Part shown: piece by piece, positions 23,352 through 31,323 of the stretch
Layout: every line of letters starts with the position of its first letter
How positions within the stretch are numbered: position 1 is the stretch's first letter
Source of the DNA: Escherichia coli
GTDB lineage: Bacteria > Pseudomonadota > Gammaproteobacteria > Enterobacterales > Enterobacteriaceae
Length of the DNA: 64,000 bases
Assembly: GCF_003334255.1 (NCBI RefSeq)
Contig: NZ_QOWU01000004.1
Strand: one strand, 5' to 3'
The notes under the pieces: model-generated
Told to the model about the DNA's origin: nothing
Seen by the model: only the letters and a program-made list of their open reading frames with translations
Databases searched by the model: none
Position numbers and translations under genes: made by a program

Positions 23352-25487
23352 ATGAGCACCATTGTGATTTTTTTAGCTGCTTTGCTGGCCTGCTCACTAC
23401 TTGCGGGATGGCTGATAAAAGTGCGATCCAGACGGCGTCAGCTGCCCTGGACCAACGCCTTCGCGGATGCGCAAACGCGTAAACTCACACCTGAAGAACG
23501 TAGCGCCGTTGAAAATTATCTTGAGAGCCTGACGCAGGTATTACAGGTGCCTGGCCCAACGGGAGCCAGCGCGGCACCGATCTCTCTGGCGCTGAATGCC
23601 GAAAGCAACAACGTCATGATGCTGACACACGCTATCACGCGTTACGGCATCTCTACCGACGATCCGAATAAATGGCGTTACTACCTCGATTCGGTAGAAG
23701 TCCACCTGCCCCCTTTCTGGGAACAGTACATCAACGATGAGAATACCGTTGAACTGATTCATACCGATTCGCTGCCGCTGGTTATTTCACTCAACGGTCA
23801 TACGCTGCAGGAGTACATGCAGGAAACTCGCAGCTATGCCTTGCAACCTGTTCCGTCAACGCAGGCGTCGATTCGCGGGGAAGAGAGTGAGCAAATCGAG
23901 CTACTCAATATTCGCAAAGAAACGCATGAAGAATATGCGCTGAGTCGTCCGCGCGGGCTGCGTGAAGCGTTGCTGATCGTCGCCTCCTTCCTGATGTTCT
24001 TTTTCTGCCTGATTACCCCGGATGTATTTGTTCCGTGGCTGGCAGGCGGCGCGTTACTGCTGCTGGGCGCAGGTCTGTGGGGGCTATTCGCGCCCCCGGC
24101 AAAATCCTCCCTGCGGGAAATTCATTGTCTGCGCGGTACACCCCGTCGTTGGGGATTGTTTGGCGAAAACGATCAGGAACAGATCAACAATATTTCACTC
24201 GGTATTATCGACCTGGTCTATCCCGCACACTGGCAGCCATACATTGCTCAGGATCTCGGTCAACAAACCGATATCGATATCTATCTCGACCGCCATGTAG
24301 TGCGTCAGGGACGATATCTTTCGCTGCATGATGAAGTAAAAAACTTTCCGTTACAGCACTGGCTGCGCAGTACGATTATCGCTGCGGGCTTGCTGCTGGT
24401 GCTGTTTATGCTGTTATTCTGGATCCCGCTGGATATGCCGCTGAAATTCACTCTCTCATGGATGAAAGGCGCGCAGACCATTGAAGCCACCAGCGTAAAA
24501 CAACTGGCTGACGCTGGCGTGCGGGTAGGCGATACATTGCGTATTAGCGGTACGGGAATGTGTAATATTCGAACTTCCGGAACCTGGAGCGCGAAAACCA
24601 ATTCACCTTTTTTACCGTTTGACTGCTCGCAGATCATCTGGAACGACGCCCGCTCATTGCCATTACCAGAATCTGAACTGGTCAACAAAGCGACGGCATT
24701 GACTGAAGCAGTTAATCGCCAGCTGCACCCTAAACCGGAAGATGAATCTCGCGTCAGTGCCTCATTACGTTCAGCAATTCAAAAATCCGGCATGGTATTG
24801 CTTGATGATTTTGGCGACATTGTACTGAAGACAGCGGATTTATGTTCTGCCAAAGATGACTGTGTGCGACTGAAAAATGCGCTGGTCAATCTCGGCAACA
24901 GTAAAGACTGGGACGCGCTGGTAAAACGCGCCAACGCCGGGAAGCTCGATGGCGTGAATGTGTTATTACGCCCGGTGAGTGCGGAATCGCTGGATAACCT
25001 GGTGGCAACCTCCACCGCGCCGTTTATCACGCATGAAACGGCGCGAGCGGCACAATCACTAAACAGTCCGGCCCCCGGCGGATTCCTGATTGTCAGCGAC
25101 GAAGGCAGCGATTTTGTTGATCAGCCCTGGCCTTCGGCATCACTTTACGACTACCCGCCGCAAGAACAGTGGAACGCTTTCCAGAAACTGGCACAAATGC
25201 TGATGCATACGCCGTTTAACGCCGAGGGTATCGTCACAAAAATCTTCACTGACGCCAATGGTACGCAGCATATTGGCCTTCATCCGATCCCGGATCGTTC
25301 CGGCCTGTGGCGCTATCTCAGCACCACATTGCTGCTACTGACGATGCTGGGTAGCGCCATTTACAATGGCGTACAGGCCTGGCGTCGTTACCAGCGTCAT
25401 CGCACTCGCATGATGGAGATTCAGGCCTATTATGAAAGCTGCCTGAACCCGCAACTGATCACCCCTTCAGAAAGCCTTATCGAATAA
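23352..25487 (+). CDS. igaA: Inner-membrane attenuator of the Rcs phosphorelay
   Basis: 711-aa ORF with several TM segments; length and context match igaA (yrfF). Confidence 0.93.
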   Translation: MSTIVIFLAALLACSLLAGWLIKVRSRRRQLPWTNAFADAQTRKLTPEERSAVENYLESLTQVLQVPGPTGASAAPISLALNAESNNVMMLTHAITRYGISTDDPNKWRYYLDSVEVHLPPFWEQYINDENTVELIHTDSLPLVISLNGHTLQEYMQETRSYALQPVPSTQASIRGEESEQIELLNIRKETHEEYALSRPRGLREALLIVASFLMFFFCLITPDVFVPWLAGGALLLLGAGLWGLFAPPAKSSLREIHCLRGTPRRWGLFGENDQEQINNISLGIIDLVYPAHWQPYIAQDLGQQTDIDIYLDRHVVRQGRYLSLHDEVKNFPLQHWLRSTIIAAGLLLVLFMLLFWIPLDMPLKFTLSWMKGAQTIEATSVKQLADAGVRVGDTLRISGTGMCNIRTSGTWSAKTNSPFLPFDCSQIIWNDARSLPLPESELVNKATALTEAVNRQLHPKPEDESRVSASLRSAIQKSGMVLLDDFGDIVLKTADLCSAKDDCVRLKNALVNLGNSKDWDALVKRANAGKLDGVNVLLRPVSAESLDNLVATSTAPFITHETARAAQSLNSPAPGGFLIVSDEGSDFVDQPWPSASLYDYPPQEQWNAFQKLAQMLMHTPFNAEGIVTKIFTDANGTQHIGLHPIPDRSGLWRYLSTTLLLLTMLGSAIYNGVQAWRRYQRHRTRMMEIQAYYESCLNPQLITPSESLIE

Positions 25488-26656: not shown

Positions 26657-27535
26657 ATGCCGCAACATGACCAATTACATCGCTATCTGTTTGAAAACTT
26701 TGCCGTGCGCGGCGAACTGGTAACCGTTTCGGAAACCCTGCAACAGATCCTTGAGAACCACGATTATCCGCAGCCCGTTAAAAACGTGCTGGCAGAACTG
26801 CTGGTTGCGACCAGCCTGTTAACCGCTACGCTGAAGTTTGATGGTGATATCACCGTACAGCTGCAGGGCGACGGTCCGATGAATCTGGCGGTTATTAACG
26901 GTAACAATAACCAGCAGATGCGCGGTGTGGCGCGCGTGCAGGGCGAAATTCCAGAAAATGCCGACCTGAAAACGCTGGTCGGCAATGGTTACGTGGTGAT
27001 CACCATTACCCCGAGCGAAGGCGAACGCTATCAGGGCGTAGTTGGTCTGGAAGGTGATACCCTGGCGGCCTGCCTGGAAGATTACTTTATGCGTTCTGAA
27101 CAGCTGCCGACGCGCCTGTTTATTCGCACCGGCGACGTAGACGGCAAACCGGCTGCAGGCGGTATGTTGTTGCAGGTAATGCCTGCGCAAAATGCCCAGC
27201 AGGACGACTTTGACCACCTGGCGACGCTAACCGAAACCATCAAAACCGAAGAACTGCTGACCTTACCGGCAAACGAAGTGTTGTGGCGTTTGTATCACGA
27301 AGAAGAGGTGACGGTTTACGATCCGCAGGATGTGGAGTTCAAATGCACCTGCTCGCGTGAACGTTGCGCCGATGCGCTGAAAACGCTGCCTGATGAAGAA
27401 GTTGATAGCATCCTGGCGGAAGATGGCGAAATTGACATGCATTGTGATTACTGCGGTAACCACTATCTGTTCAATGCGATGGATATTGCTGAAATCCGCA
27501 ACAACGCGTCTCCGGCAGATCCGCAAGTTCATTAA
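26657..27535 (+). CDS. hslO: Redox-regulated chaperone Hsp33
   Basis: ATG at 26657 gives 292 aa; C-terminal zinc-binding CxC...CxxC (CTCSRERC ... CDYCGNHY) visible. Confidence 0.95.
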
Positions 27536-27543
27536 TGAGTATG

Positions 27544-27571
27544 TCCGGCAGAGAGGGCTCTGCCGGATTTT
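27544..27571 (+). terminator. Rho-independent terminator of hslO
   Basis: ccggcagag-aggg-ctctgccgg stem-loop followed by attttt. Confidence 0.8.
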
Positions 27572-27597
27572 ACGACTAATACACCTGATGCGCTTTG

Positions 27598-29322
27598 TCA
27601 CTCATTCAGATTCACATTCAGCCTTTCACCATCCACTACAAGATCGCGCCACGCTTTAGGCTTCGTCCCCAGTTTTCCATCCTTCGCAGCTGTGAGTAAT
27701 TTTTCTTTCGTTATTTCGTTCGGAAGTAAACTCATATCAAGCGCGTCCCATTCTTTTCTGTCTGAGTCAAAGCCATAGACAATGACTCTGTCATCATTAA
27801 AAGCAAACAGGATCCGCTCCGCCTGACCATCACTATTCAGATCTTGCTCGACCAGGACGCAGGCGTCTTTTTCAATACAGGTCATCACGTTATAGCGATC
27901 CTGGATTAAGGCCGACCAGAATGTCGCATCAGGTTTAACAGAACCAGGGGCAATTAACACATTATCGGCTAATACTTTTTCCGATACCTGTTGCTGAAGA
28001 TGTTGCTCTCCATCTAACGCCATCAGCAGATCCCGCGCGCGTTTCGGGTCTTTCATAAACCCGGCATCGCTTTTCAGCGACTCAAGCGCAGCACGTCCAT
28101 AGCGACCGCTCTGCTCGAGCATGTAGATAGTTACCTGGTCTGACGTGTTTTTGCCGCTCTGATAACGCGCCATATGGCTGTTCACGCTAATGCGCATACT
28201 GTCCAGCACCGGCGAATTAAGAAGCACCAGTATCACCAACACCAATAACGAAACCGCAAGGTTCACTTTGCCCTGAAGAACAACGGGATTTTGCCCTTTA
28301 CGCCAGACGATGCTGACAAAATACCCCAGCGACCACACCAGTAACACCAGCACCGCCAGCACGCCCTGCAAGCGGTCGACAGTCCAGCCGTACTGAGCGA
28401 CCCGCAGCCATAACGCCCAGGCGGCGACGAACACATACAGCGGAGCAACCAGCAAAGCGGTTTTAATCAGGCAACGCAACGGCCCTGTCCAGGGAAGTGA
28501 CGCTTTTTGCGGATCGCGGACAATAGCCATTAAGATCAATTGCAAAAAGGCCAGCGTCAACAGCAACCCGGCGGCGGAGATGTGGCGAGAAATCGCGCTC
28601 AGGCCCGTAAACGGCAGGGTGATGATAAACATCAGGGTTAGCAATGATACTAACGGCAGCAACCCCGTGGCGATTAACGTGAACAACTTTTGAATAGAGT
28701 CGATTAAACGTGACTGTGTTCGCGCGAGGATCACCGCCAGCGCGGTAACCAGACCTAACGTGAGATAAATAAACCAGTCGGTTGCAAAAAAGAGCGTATT
28801 GAAAAACGTGATGCCAACAAGTTTAAACAACTCACTCCACAGTAAAAGCACCAGCCACGTCAAGCCATTGGCGAGAAAAATCACCAGTAATATAAGTACG
28901 TTATGCCATACTGACTGGTAAAAATAGCGATAGCGGCTACTGTCATTGCGGATGCGAAGGCTTTGTTGTATCCACGGTAGCAACAACATTGCCATCAACA
29001 GCAGATAGCAACCAAAATCCCAAAGCGCCTTTTCAGCTCTCCAGGGGTTCATGCCATCAGTTTGCCACTTCAGCCAGCCGCTCATCCCCAGCGTGGCAAT
29101 AAACACTAGCGCCAGCCATCCCCAAAGGCGCTTCTGTTTAAAAGAGATCACGGAGAAGAGTAAAACGGATGAAAACGCGACGGTCGCAGGCACGCCATAA
29201 ACAATCCAACTGTGATTTTTTCCGGAAAGCCAGGCGATCAGCAGGTAGCAAACCAGACCCTGAAGTAATCCGGTAGCAATCATCCCCCAGCGTGTTGCGG
29301 GTGAAAGTTCAACGTTATCCAT
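27598..29322 (-). CDS. yhgE: Uncharacterized polytopic inner-membrane protein
   Basis: 574-aa ORF with many hydrophobic helices in the N-terminal two-thirds and a soluble C-terminal domain. Confidence 0.88.
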
Positions 29323-29700
29323 GTTGGTTATCCAGAATCAAAAGGTGGGTTAATTATCGCATCCGGGCAGTAGTATTTTGCTTTTTTCAGAAAATAATCA
29401 AAAAAAGTTAGCGTGGTGAATCGATACTTTACCGGTTGAATTTGCATCAATTTCATTCAGGAATGCGATTCCACTCACAATATTCCCGCCATATAAACCA
29501 AGATTTAACCTTTTGAGAACATTTTCCACACCTAAAATGCTATTTCTGCGATAATAGCAACCGTTTCGTGACAGGAATCACGGAGTTTTTTGTCAAATAT
29601 GAATTTCTCCAGATACGTAAATCTATGAGCCTTGTCGCGGTTAACACCCCCAAAAAGACTTTACTATTCAGGCAATACATATTGGCTAAGGAGCAGTGAA

Positions 29701-31323
29701 ATGCGCGTTAACAATGGTTTGACCCCGCAAGAACTCGAGGCTTATGGTATCAGTGACGTACATGATATCGTTTACAACCCAAGCTACGACCTGCTGTATC
29801 AGGAAGAGCTCGATCCGAGCCTGACAGGTTATGAGCGCGGGGTGTTAACTAATCTGGGTGCCGTTGCCGTCGATACCGGGATCTTCACCGGTCGTTCACC
29901 AAAAGATAAGTATATCGTCCGTGACGATACCACTCGCGATACTTTCTGGTGGGCAGACAAAGGCAAAGGTAAGAACGACAACAAACCTCTCTCTCCGGAA
30001 ACCTGGCAGCATCTGAAAGGCCTGGTGACCAGGCAGCTTTCCGGCAAACGTCTGTTCGTTGTCGACGCTTTCTGTGGTGCGAACCCGGATACTCGTCTTT
30101 CCGTCCGTTTCATCACCGAAGTGGCCTGGCAGGCGCATTTTGTCAAAAACATGTTTATTCGCCCGAGCGATGAAGAACTGGCAGGTTTCAAACCAGACTT
30201 TATCGTTATGAACGGCGCGAAGTGCACTAACCCGCAGTGGAAAGAACAGGGTCTCAACTCCGAAAACTTCGTGGCGTTTAACCTGACCGAGCGCATGCAG
30301 CTGATTGGCGGCACCTGGTACGGCGGCGAAATGAAGAAAGGGATGTTCTCGATGATGAACTACCTGCTGCCGCTGAAAGGTATCGCTTCTATGCACTGCT
30401 CCGCCAACGTTGGTGAGAAAGGCGATGTTGCGGTGTTCTTCGGCCTTTCCGGCACCGGTAAAACCACCCTTTCCACCGACCCGAAACGTCGCCTGATTGG
30501 CGATGACGAACACGGCTGGGACGATGACGGCGTGTTTAACTTCGAAGGCGGCTGCTACGCAAAAACTATCAAGCTGTCGAAAGAAGCGGAACCTGAAATC
30601 TACAACGCTATCCGTCGTGATGCGTTGCTGGAAAACGTCACCGTGCGTGAAGATGGCACTATCGACTTTGATGATGGTTCAAAAACCGAGAACACCCGCG
30701 TTTCTTATCCGATCTATCACATCGATAACATTGTTAAGCCGGTTTCCAAAGCGGGCCACGCGACTAAGGTTATCTTCCTGACTGCTGATGCTTTCGGCGT
30801 GTTGCCGCCGGTTTCTCGCCTGACTGCCGATCAAACCCAGTATCACTTCCTCTCTGGCTTCACCGCCAAACTGGCCGGTACTGAGCGTGGCATCACCGAA
30901 CCGACGCCAACCTTCTCCGCTTGCTTCGGCGCGGCATTCCTGTCGCTGCACCCGACTCAGTACGCAGAAGTGCTGGTGAAACGTATGCAGGCGGCGGGCG
31001 CGCAGGCTTATCTGGTTAACACTGGCTGGAACGGCACTGGCAAACGTATCTCGATTAAAGATACCCGCGCCATTATCGACGCCATCCTCAACGGTTCGCT
31101 GGATAATGCAGAAACCTTCACTCTGCCGATGTTTAACCTGGCGATCCCAACCGAACTGCCGGGCGTAGACACGAAGATTCTCGATCCGCGTAACACCTAC
31201 GCTTCTCCGGAACAGTGGCAGGAAAAAGCCGAAACCCTGGCGAAACTGTTTATCGACAACTTCGATAAATACACCGACACCCCTGCGGGTGCCGCGCTGG
31301 TAGCGGCTGGTCCGAAACTGTAA
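29701..31323 (+). CDS. pckA: Phosphoenolpyruvate carboxykinase (ATP)
   Basis: ORF track starts 29632; ATG at 29701 ([17 protein letters not shown]...) gives 540 aa; kinase-1a P-loop (GLSGTGKTT) visible. Confidence 0.96.

Follow-up and report, generated by a model that had tools for sequence, protein, structure and literature searches.

yhgE, a rapidly diverging core gene of Escherichia coli for a predicted DUF4153 inner-membrane protein

What kind of protein does yhgE encode, and how has a gene that keeps its place between hslO and pckA come to diverge as fast as it does? yhgE is one of the remaining uncharacterized core genes of E. coli K-12, and its family comprises >2000 clusters at 50% identity in Gamma- and Betaproteobacteria. 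We analyzed the gene within a window of 64,000 nucleotides from one E. coli assembly (contig NZ_QOWU01000004.1). It occupies positions 27598..29322 on the minus strand and forms an ATG-to-stop open reading frame of 574 codons plus stop. The initial annotation had called this 574-amino-acid frame yhgE, and both the open reading frame listing and RefSeq agree: The identical stretch is annotated there as yhgE, "DUF4153 domain-containing protein." The start codon at 29322 is backed by 123 homologs, in which M1 (93%) and the N-terminal segment are conserved.

The locus and its control regions

A megablast search (query 27300-29900) finds yhgE in 5426 out of 5426 complete E. coli genomes, presence being counted where at least 80% of the gene is covered, and several of the matches, laboratory strains among them, are 100% identical to the window. 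yhgE is an already known core gene, already flagged as of "unknown function," and its occurrence here adds nothing new to the databases. Its GC content (0.47-0.54) is ordinary for E. coli, and we reject horizontal acquisition on grounds of base composition. IS insertions are found in yhgE of some strains, and truncated forms occur in databases.

The gene order is igaA, yrfG, hslR, and hslO on the plus strand, yhgE on the minus strand, pckA on the plus strand, and envZ-ompR on the minus strand. hslO is convergent with yhgE across a spacer of 62 nt, and pckA is divergent across a spacer of 378 nt. Since neither flanking gene is co-oriented with it, yhgE has no operon partner, as had been proposed, and is monocistronic. 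Enterobacterales keep the order hslO/yhgE/pckA, and this synteny extends out to Cronobacter. The neighbors in other lineages are unrelated: The gene is mostly solitary there, and we found no conserved gene partner. The only recurrent neighborhood feature outside Enterobacterales is a 4-nt overlap with tag at the stop codon in Stenotrophomonas-type loci, which we judged uninformative as a clue to function.

The initial annotation also described the locus as insulated by terminators, which is overstated. What stands is one hairpin followed by TTTT (27543..27571, plus strand) in the convergent spacer, which resembles an intrinsic terminator of hslO. The hairpin itself (27543-27568; -23.5 kcal/mol on the plus strand and -24.8 on the minus strand, z -3.0 and -4.8) is the only structured element downstream from yhgE; a simple terminator scan did not score it. 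Its T-run (27568-27571) is present on the hslO strand only; read on the strand of yhgE, the hairpin runs into ACAUACUCAUU and lacks a U-run. The hairpin, shared by the two genes, therefore looks like the terminator of hslO and not like a canonical yhgE terminator. There is no terminator on the pckA side: The sole terminator-like match in the yhgE-pckA spacer (29563-29586) coincides in part with CGTGA-N6-TCACG, a palindrome of CRP type located upstream of pckA.

The divergent control region between yhgE and pckA (29323..29700, no strand assigned) holds two CRP-type sites. One, at 29464-29479 (TGCGATTCCACTCACA), is the reverse complement of an ETEC CRP ChIP-seq site listed for yhgE/pck (PMC4287617); the other, at 29567-29582 (CGTGACAGGAATCACG), is a candidate that we put forward on our own reading of the palindrome. 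The sigma-70 candidates before yhgE are all weak, with -10 boxes near 29391 and 29372, and a search of Rfam gave no match in or around the gene, control region included. In published surveys, two minor sigma factors give genomic SELEX peaks within the convergent spacer (PMC5493296), and GalR gives a weak ChIP signal within the divergent one (PMC5110547); neither is informative on function.

The searchable literature contains no functional study of E. coli yhgE, and mentions of the gene are incidental; most "yhgE" papers concern unrelated Gram-positive genes (YhgE/Pip and a lactococcal pilin). A transposon mutant in yhgE showed a long lag, deletion and transposon mutants both being viable (PMC5996734). 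A mutation of the yhgE start codon was found in an ampicillin-tolerant evolved line, the phenotype of which its authors ascribe to cyaA (PMC7394356). Expression of yhgE in O157 depends on growth phase and drops 3.3-fold at a growth-phase transition (PMC2241611), and Salmonella yhgE belongs to the SprB regulon (PMC6726612).

Family, predicted fold, and conserved sites

Pfam assigns YhgE to DUF4153 (PF13687) only (residues 52-415; E 2.6e-31, 109.6 bits, model positions 3-372 of 373), and 113 out of the 123 aligned homologs match this model as well. By searching 1.84 billion cluster representatives with phmmer, we found 2043 relatives at E<=0.001, of which 418 remain at E<=1e-30. These relatives, each a cluster at 50% identity, are nearly all 560-630 amino acids long, and most align end to end with YhgE, so the architecture of a membrane domain plus a C-terminal domain is conserved. 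The named members come from Enterobacterales, Xanthomonadales (Stenotrophomonas, Xanthomonas, Lysobacter), Comamonas, Herbaspirillum, and others. Longer homologs carry no added Pfam domain, apart from one DUF6624-DUF4153 fusion. A single-protein scan of genome contigs gave six loci. We rejected apparent phage-borne homologs, since the tblastn matches in the phage collection are misfiled bacterial contigs.

None of the searches links YhgE to a characterized family, in keeping with the initial statement that the protein had no functional assignment. Among NCBIfam models at E<=1, the sole match is the unrelated YitT model (E 0.079, 11.8 bits against a cut-off of 550), and no PADLOC anti-phage defense family matches at E<=1. 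Searches of PDB sequences with the single sequence, a whole-protein profile, and a C-terminal profile returned chance-level matches only. Curated transporter models (MFS, APC, DMT, RND, ABC-2, and others) do not match either, and the HMM search that had been suggested as a check on the gene thus assigned no characterized transporter family, only DUF4153. At the level of predicted structure, a Foldseek search of AFDB50 recovered only unannotated members of the DUF4153/DUF7057 family, and a fold search found no similarity to solved transporter folds. The full-length DUF4153 proteins listed among the AFDB50 matches have query-normalized TM-scores of ~0.7-0.86, down to 20-30% sequence identity, and YhgE shares its predicted fold with these other members. 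As far as these searches reach, YhgE is therefore without a characterized relative by sequence, and its predicted fold is without one that is solved or functionally annotated.

The membrane domain (residues 1-370; 28213..29322, minus strand) is predicted to contain 11 transmembrane (TM) helices with a cytoplasmic N-terminus. By Kyte-Doolittle hydropathy, there are 11 hydrophobic segments, all between residues 12 and 375, and the AlphaFold2 model, for which the alignment of 123 sequences served as input, has 11 long helices at these segments (8-32, 38-57, 64-87, 93-122, 127-168, 182-202, 204-239, 250-268, 280-311, 315-340, and 346-368) together with two short helices. The mean pLDDT of the whole protein is 94.5 and its pTM 0.88. 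An earlier estimate of about ten or more hydrophobic helices is thereby made precise. No internal sequence repeat was found by hhalign of alignment segments (probabilities 0.6-3.8%), a comparison at sequence level only, with structural pseudo-symmetry outside its reach.

The predicted orientation of the protein rests on charge and on cysteines. Over the 123 homologs, Lys plus Arg amount to 11.6 in the even, putatively cytoplasmic loops versus 5.3 in the odd, putatively periplasmic ones. To the latter sum, loop 9 contributes two arginines, the conserved R307 and R317. Because the positive-inside rule holds over these homologs and a near-invariant Cys pair in the C-terminal domain fits an oxidizing compartment, we infer that the N-terminus is cytoplasmic and the C-terminal domain periplasmic. 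Topology and fold prediction had been proposed for this protein from the start; their outcome is a predicted N-in/C-out arrangement and an AlphaFold2 fold without a solved relative.

Conservation in the 123-sequence alignment concentrates in a few blocks. The most conserved family motif, L-R-V-x-Q-Y-G-W-T-x-x-R (residues 306-317; 28372..28407, minus strand), lies in the predicted periplasmic turn between TM9 and TM10: R307 is invariant, R317 is conserved at 98%, and Q310, Y311, G312, and W313 are also among the top-conserved positions. Orthologs with an overall identity of 36-86% retain 55-82% identity over this block. Next to the membrane after TM11 is a conserved juxtamembrane helix (residues 371-390; 28153..28212, minus strand; AlphaFold2 helix 375-388) with the consensus P-L-L-D-P-x-R-I-S-V-x-S-Q-x-A-R-L, in which P371 (98%), D374 (83%), Q383 (93%, His in E. 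coli), and R386 (93%) stand out and which is 70-100% identical across orthologs from Enterobacteriaceae. Further top-conserved positions are W156, W162, L165, F166, F174, F179, and F184, at the end of TM5, in the short helix 173-180, and at the start of TM6; P223, F232, and L236-P-F-T-G-L241 at the end of TM7; and G406 and G409, both invariant. On the predicted topology, almost all of the top-conserved positions would lie at the periplasmic surface of the membrane. A smaller conserved set is on the cytoplasmic side (Q119, Y131, W139, N141, and R201). Except for N354, every position with >=70% conservation in the predicted helix cores is hydrophobic or aromatic.

The existence of a soluble C-terminal domain, noted in the initial annotation, is borne out, but the soluble part is ~200 amino acids (residues ~372-574) and not ~150, and it is probably periplasmic. 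AlphaFold2 divides it into the juxtamembrane helix, a helical sub-domain, and an alpha/beta sub-domain; the domain proper (residues 391-574; 27601..28152, minus strand; predicted periplasmic) comprises the last two, at 391-455 and 456-574, and modeled in isolation has a pLDDT of 94.0. It carries (27817..27879, minus strand) a conserved Cys pair, C482 and C488, each present in 113 of 123 homologs, a pattern that is compatible with a disulfide in an oxidizing compartment. The pair is followed by a D-L-N-S-D-G-Q-A-E loop (494-502), of which D494 is found in 103, D498 in 104, and E502 in 93 of the 123 homologs. This loop resembles the calcium-binding loop of FG-GAP/VCBS repeats. The corresponding profile matches are sub-significant: FG-GAP_3 in seven homologs (best E 3.7e-03), FG-GAP in two (best E 8.5e-03), and a weak match of the C-terminal region to the CRTAC1 propeller repeat (E 0.01). 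In Pfam, the E. coli domain itself matches nothing even at E<=10. Among its homologs, four out of 35 homologous domains match DUF7057 (PF23167) at E<=0.001 (best 2e-09), as do 16 out of 123 homologs at E<=0.1, and a RefSeq fragment of an Erwinia homolog is named after DUF7057. The link of E. coli YhgE to DUF7057 is transitive only, via the alignment and the shared predicted fold.

Divergence between and within species

Judged by sequence comparison, fast and mosaic divergence is the most distinctive result on yhgE. We compared the syntenic hslO/yhgE/pckA position of other genera with that of the window. YhgE of Cronobacter is only 36% identical, versus 69% for IgaA, 79% for YrfG, 84% for HslR, 85% for HslO, 90% for PckA, and 93% for EnvZ. 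The same holds for Huaxiibacter (YhgE 46%, other neighbors 77-95%) and, less steeply, for Pseudocitrobacter (68%, other neighbors 73-93%). Salmonella YhgE is 56-57% identical (AFDB fragments 53-56%), and the AFDB50 Foldseek search gives 57% for Citrobacter and 43% for Enterobacter. At shorter distance, the comparison with E. marmotae yields a dN of 0.074 and a dN/dS of 0.22 for yhgE, versus a dN of 0.004-0.009 and a dN/dS of ~0.02 for hslO and pckA; the nonsynonymous divergence of yhgE is eight to 20 times that of these two neighbors.

The difference is visible within E. coli as well. YhgE of EDL933, BEC1, and CUVET17-1418 differs from the window allele by 24-29 amino acids, the products of yrfG, hslR, hslO, and pckA by 0-3. 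From dS and dN between alleles, we delimit a hypervariable, mosaic part at residues 495-574 (27601..27840, minus strand). Between the K-12-type allele and that of EDL933, residues 495-540 have a dS of 0.43 and a dN of 0.16, versus a dS of 0.045 in the TM domain; in the comparison with CUVET17-1418, it is residues 541-574 that have a raised dS (0.45). On these values, the hypervariable C-terminal blocks were imported by recombination from far more distant alleles. Such import agrees with published observations: The YhgE region is among the E. coli hotspots of phylogenetic incongruence (Touchon et al. 2009; PMC2617782), and yhgE is among the core genes most useful to discriminate Salmonella lineages (PMC3575412).

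Over short distances, the C-terminal domain is the most divergent part (~80% identity among species of Escherichia); over long ones, in orthologs that are 36-46% identical overall, loops 5, 7, and 9 and helix 371-390 survive. By crude Nei-Gojobori windows, dN/dS ranges from 0.10 to 0.76 among segments, all below one but for a single exception, residues 541-574 against E. marmotae (1.08, from ~6 nonsynonymous and 2 synonymous changes). With dN/dS <1 in every segment except this small-count value, we make no claim of positive selection on yhgE. Relaxed constraint and recombination would explain its variability equally well.

Possible roles and known systems

Our main reading, to which we give a probability of roughly 30%, is that YhgE is an envelope-facing binder of, or enzyme for, an amphipathic anionic molecule and not a classical solute transporter. 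Its working site would lie at the periplasmic leaflet, where most of the strongest family-wide conservation falls. This site would be formed by the end of TM5 with helix 173-180 (W156, W162, F166, F174, F179, F184), the L-P-F-T-G-L turn after TM7, the R307-x-x-Q-Y-G-W-T-x-x-R317 turn, and the D374/Q383/R386 helix after TM11. Where an aromatic groove at the membrane surface contains two fixed arginines, one would expect binding or processing of a molecule that is amphipathic and has an anionic head group; the groove is itself deduced from sequence position and predicted topology. Such a ligand might be a phospholipid, an intermediate linked to polyprenyl phosphate, or a glycan with a lipid anchor. 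The exposed and exchangeable part would be the C-terminal domain, which has the motif like a calcium loop. That this domain diverges fastest at short distance and is reshuffled within E. coli suggests contact with something variable, such as polymers of the envelope or a phage, colicin, or contact-dependent toxin exploiting YhgE. It counts against an envelope-facing binder that several residues conserved in the family are replaced in Escherichia YhgE (N266 to A, W346 to P, Q383 to H, and D398 to T) and that the neighborhoods of distant homologs contain no envelope-related partner. In a more far-reaching form, which we regard as a long shot, DUF4153/YhgE would be an unrecognized class of inner-membrane proteins with a fold outside the PDB, whose Arg/aromatic site at the periplasmic leaflet binds, flips, or modifies a lipid-linked envelope molecule and whose DUF7057 domain is under diversifying pressure driven by phages or toxins.

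The old names "putative transport protein" and "Transport" express another reading, that YhgE is a secondary transporter or exporter of a small solute; some AFDB entries of the family are likewise named "Transport protein." The protein is indeed polytopic, with 11 TM helices, one of which (TM11) contains the conserved N354, and conserved polar residues lie on both faces (Q119, Y131, and N141 cytoplasmic; R307, Q310, R317, and D374 periplasmic). The cytoplasmic-side set, W139 and R201 included, would also fit a trans-membrane conduit and so speaks against placing the site at the periplasmic leaflet. We nevertheless find transport possible but doubtful, since no internal sequence repeat was detected and N354 is the only polar residue among the conserved helix-core positions. 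The divergence of yhgE bears on two further readings. YhgE may be a periplasm-exposed docking or scaffold protein without catalysis or transport that serves phages, colicins, or CDI toxins as a receptor for entry at the inner membrane, its rapid mosaic evolution being a reflection of such use. The excess of nonsynonymous divergence over hslO and pckA, the 24-29 substitutions between strains versus 0-3 in neighbor genes, and the imported blocks in the exposed C-terminal domain would all suit such a role, and Touchon et al. ascribe the incongruence at YhgE and other membrane-protein loci to diversifying selection (PMC2617782). We hold it to be unlikely: dN/dS is <1 in nearly every segment, the searchable literature contains no phage, colicin, or CDI screen that names E. 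coli yhgE, and the family is also found in Xanthomonadales and Burkholderiales, with a different ecology. Invariant arginines and aromatic motifs over >2000 clusters argue for an intrinsic biochemical role too.

Alternatively, yhgE may be under relaxed constraint in Enterobacteriaceae, the dispensable remnant of an ancestral function that stays intact mostly by inertia. A dN/dS of 0.2-0.3 versus ~0.02 in the neighbors points in this direction, as do the viability of deletion and transposon mutants (PMC5996734), the IS insertions and truncated forms mentioned above, and the loss in Enterobacterales of motifs kept elsewhere, such as N-A-V-x-Q-D-G (266-272) and Q383. Yet the core motifs are retained in E. 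coli (R307, Q310, G312, R317, P371, R386, G406, G409, C482, and C488), all 5426 complete genomes carry 80% or more of the gene, synteny is kept to Cronobacter with dN/dS still well below one, and expression is regulated by growth phase in O157 (PMC2241611), so we consider a mere remnant improbable. The four readings, of an envelope-facing binder, a transporter, a docking protein, and a gene under relaxed constraint, are not mutually exclusive.

Should the inferences made for an envelope-facing binder be right, YhgE would pair a membrane fold that has no solved relative with a conserved site facing the periplasmic leaflet, a location at which several steps of lipid handling in envelope biogenesis still await the assignment of a protein. 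For a core gene in conserved synteny, its divergence is extreme; YhgE of E. coli and that of Salmonella, for instance, share ~56% identity. It is a reasonable orphan target for structure determination and envelope-focused genetics.

How does YhgE compare with known systems? The "phage infection proteins" of the YhgE/Pip family (B. subtilis YhgE, L. lactis Pip) have the gene name alone in common with it and form a different family, the model of which is absent both from the NCBIfam matches at E<=1 and from the Pfam matches of E. coli YhgE; the literature on Pip and phage adsorption is therefore not transferable. In general architecture, YhgE would resemble polytopic, periplasm-facing envelope enzymes such as the O-antigen ligase WaaL and the GT-C glycosyltransferases, which likewise combine many TM helices and a periplasmic domain with conserved Arg and aromatic positions in their periplasmic loops. 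GT-C enzymes carry a catalytic acidic residue in the first periplasmic loop, whereas this loop is short and unconserved in YhgE, and no similarity in sequence or fold was found. The D494-x-N-x-D498-G-x-x-E502 motif, placed between two strands, is close to the DxDxDGxxD calcium loop of FG-GAP/VCBS proteins (the propellers of integrin alpha and CRTAC1). Those propellers are seven-bladed, whereas YhgE has a single motif and one small sheet in an alpha/beta domain, and its matches to them stay below significance. Homologs that align end to end with YhgE match DUF7057 in their C-terminal domain, although the E. coli domain itself does not. The family of which YhgE is a member is DUF4153, formerly assigned to the Cache clan, since judged to have no relation to it (PMC4822843), and otherwise absent from the searchable literature; the membrane domain of YhgE matches its model over the full length.

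Intergenic variation around yhgE

The convergent spacer between hslO and yhgE varies in length among Escherichia. It is 62 nt in the window (27536-27597) and 133 nt in E. coli CUVET17-1418 (locus L022, 2047-2179), and it reaches approximately 145-150 nt in both E. marmotae (locus L016) and a related Escherichia lineage (locus L017). The added DNA in CUVET17-1418 resembles a REP-type palindrome (GCCTGATGCGCTGCGCTTACCAGGCCTA), and the final seven codons of the yhgE allele in this strain are also unlike those of the window allele. Genomic SELEX has placed binding peaks of two minor sigma factors in the same convergent spacer (window 27536-27597), at K-12 coordinate 3528652 (PMC5493296), a location where no promoter is expected; antisense transcription might explain these peaks, as might non-specific binding.

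The spacer between envZ and pckA is a variable spot across the Escherichia loci compared. E. marmotae carries an extra 130-aa ORF there (L016, 2534-2926), the other Escherichia lineage a 346-aa ORF (L017, 1906-2946), and CUVET17-1418 a RelE/ParE toxin gene (L022, 6020-6104); none of these three is found in the envZ-pckA spacer of the window.

Within the divergent yhgE-pckA region, a terminator-like hairpin (29563-29586) lies upstream of pckA, where it coincides in part with a palindrome of the CRP type, CGTGACAGGAATCACG. Another CRP site, at 29464-29479 (TGCGATTCCACTCACA), matches a published ETEC ChIP-seq site. The longest reading frame of pckA opens at a TTG 23 codons 5′ of the annotated ATG at 29701 (window 29632-29700); we took the ATG as the start, as in RefSeq.

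Divergence and disruption of coding sequences

The igaA gene (window 23352-25487) ranks second in evolutionary rate within the gene block, with 69% identity to its Cronobacter counterpart. Against other Escherichia species its dS is 0.65-0.81, compared with 0.14-0.37 for its neighbors. This combination of fast divergence and high dS hints at an unusual recombination history for the entire igaA-yhgE stretch.

Interrupted alleles of yhgE itself occur in other E. coli: at the position corresponding to window 27598-29322, the gene carries an inserted IS1414 in one matching record (H1, NZ_OZ547038.1) and an inserted IS1 in another (H9, NZ_CP022912.1). A third match (H32) spans just 85% of yhgE, and truncated YhgE fragments are also common in the protein databases.

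DUF4153 genes in other genomic settings

In Stenotrophomonas-type loci, tag, encoding DNA-3-methyladenine glycosylase I (L011, 6755-7300; L008, 2397-2921), shares 4 nt with the end of the DUF4153 gene, at its stop codon. This arrangement suggests that the two genes are translationally coupled; they have no evident link in function.

A yhgE-like fragment of 79 codons, with 50.6% identity to residues 26-104 of E. coli YhgE, is carried by plasmids. It appears in at least eight plasmid records (including H50-H57), from Klebsiella, Enterobacter, and E. coli hosts, and a tally of the matching records finds these plasmids mostly typed as conjugative. On plasmid pJIE137 (L023, NZ_EF219134.1) the fragment occupies 3343-3534 and follows, in order, ISEcp1, blaCTX-M-62, and an oppositely oriented cupin-like ORF, which is probably the gene commonly named orf477. 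Apparently, the ISEcp1 unit that moved this CTX-M gene took with it the 5′ end of the DUF4153 gene on the donor chromosome.
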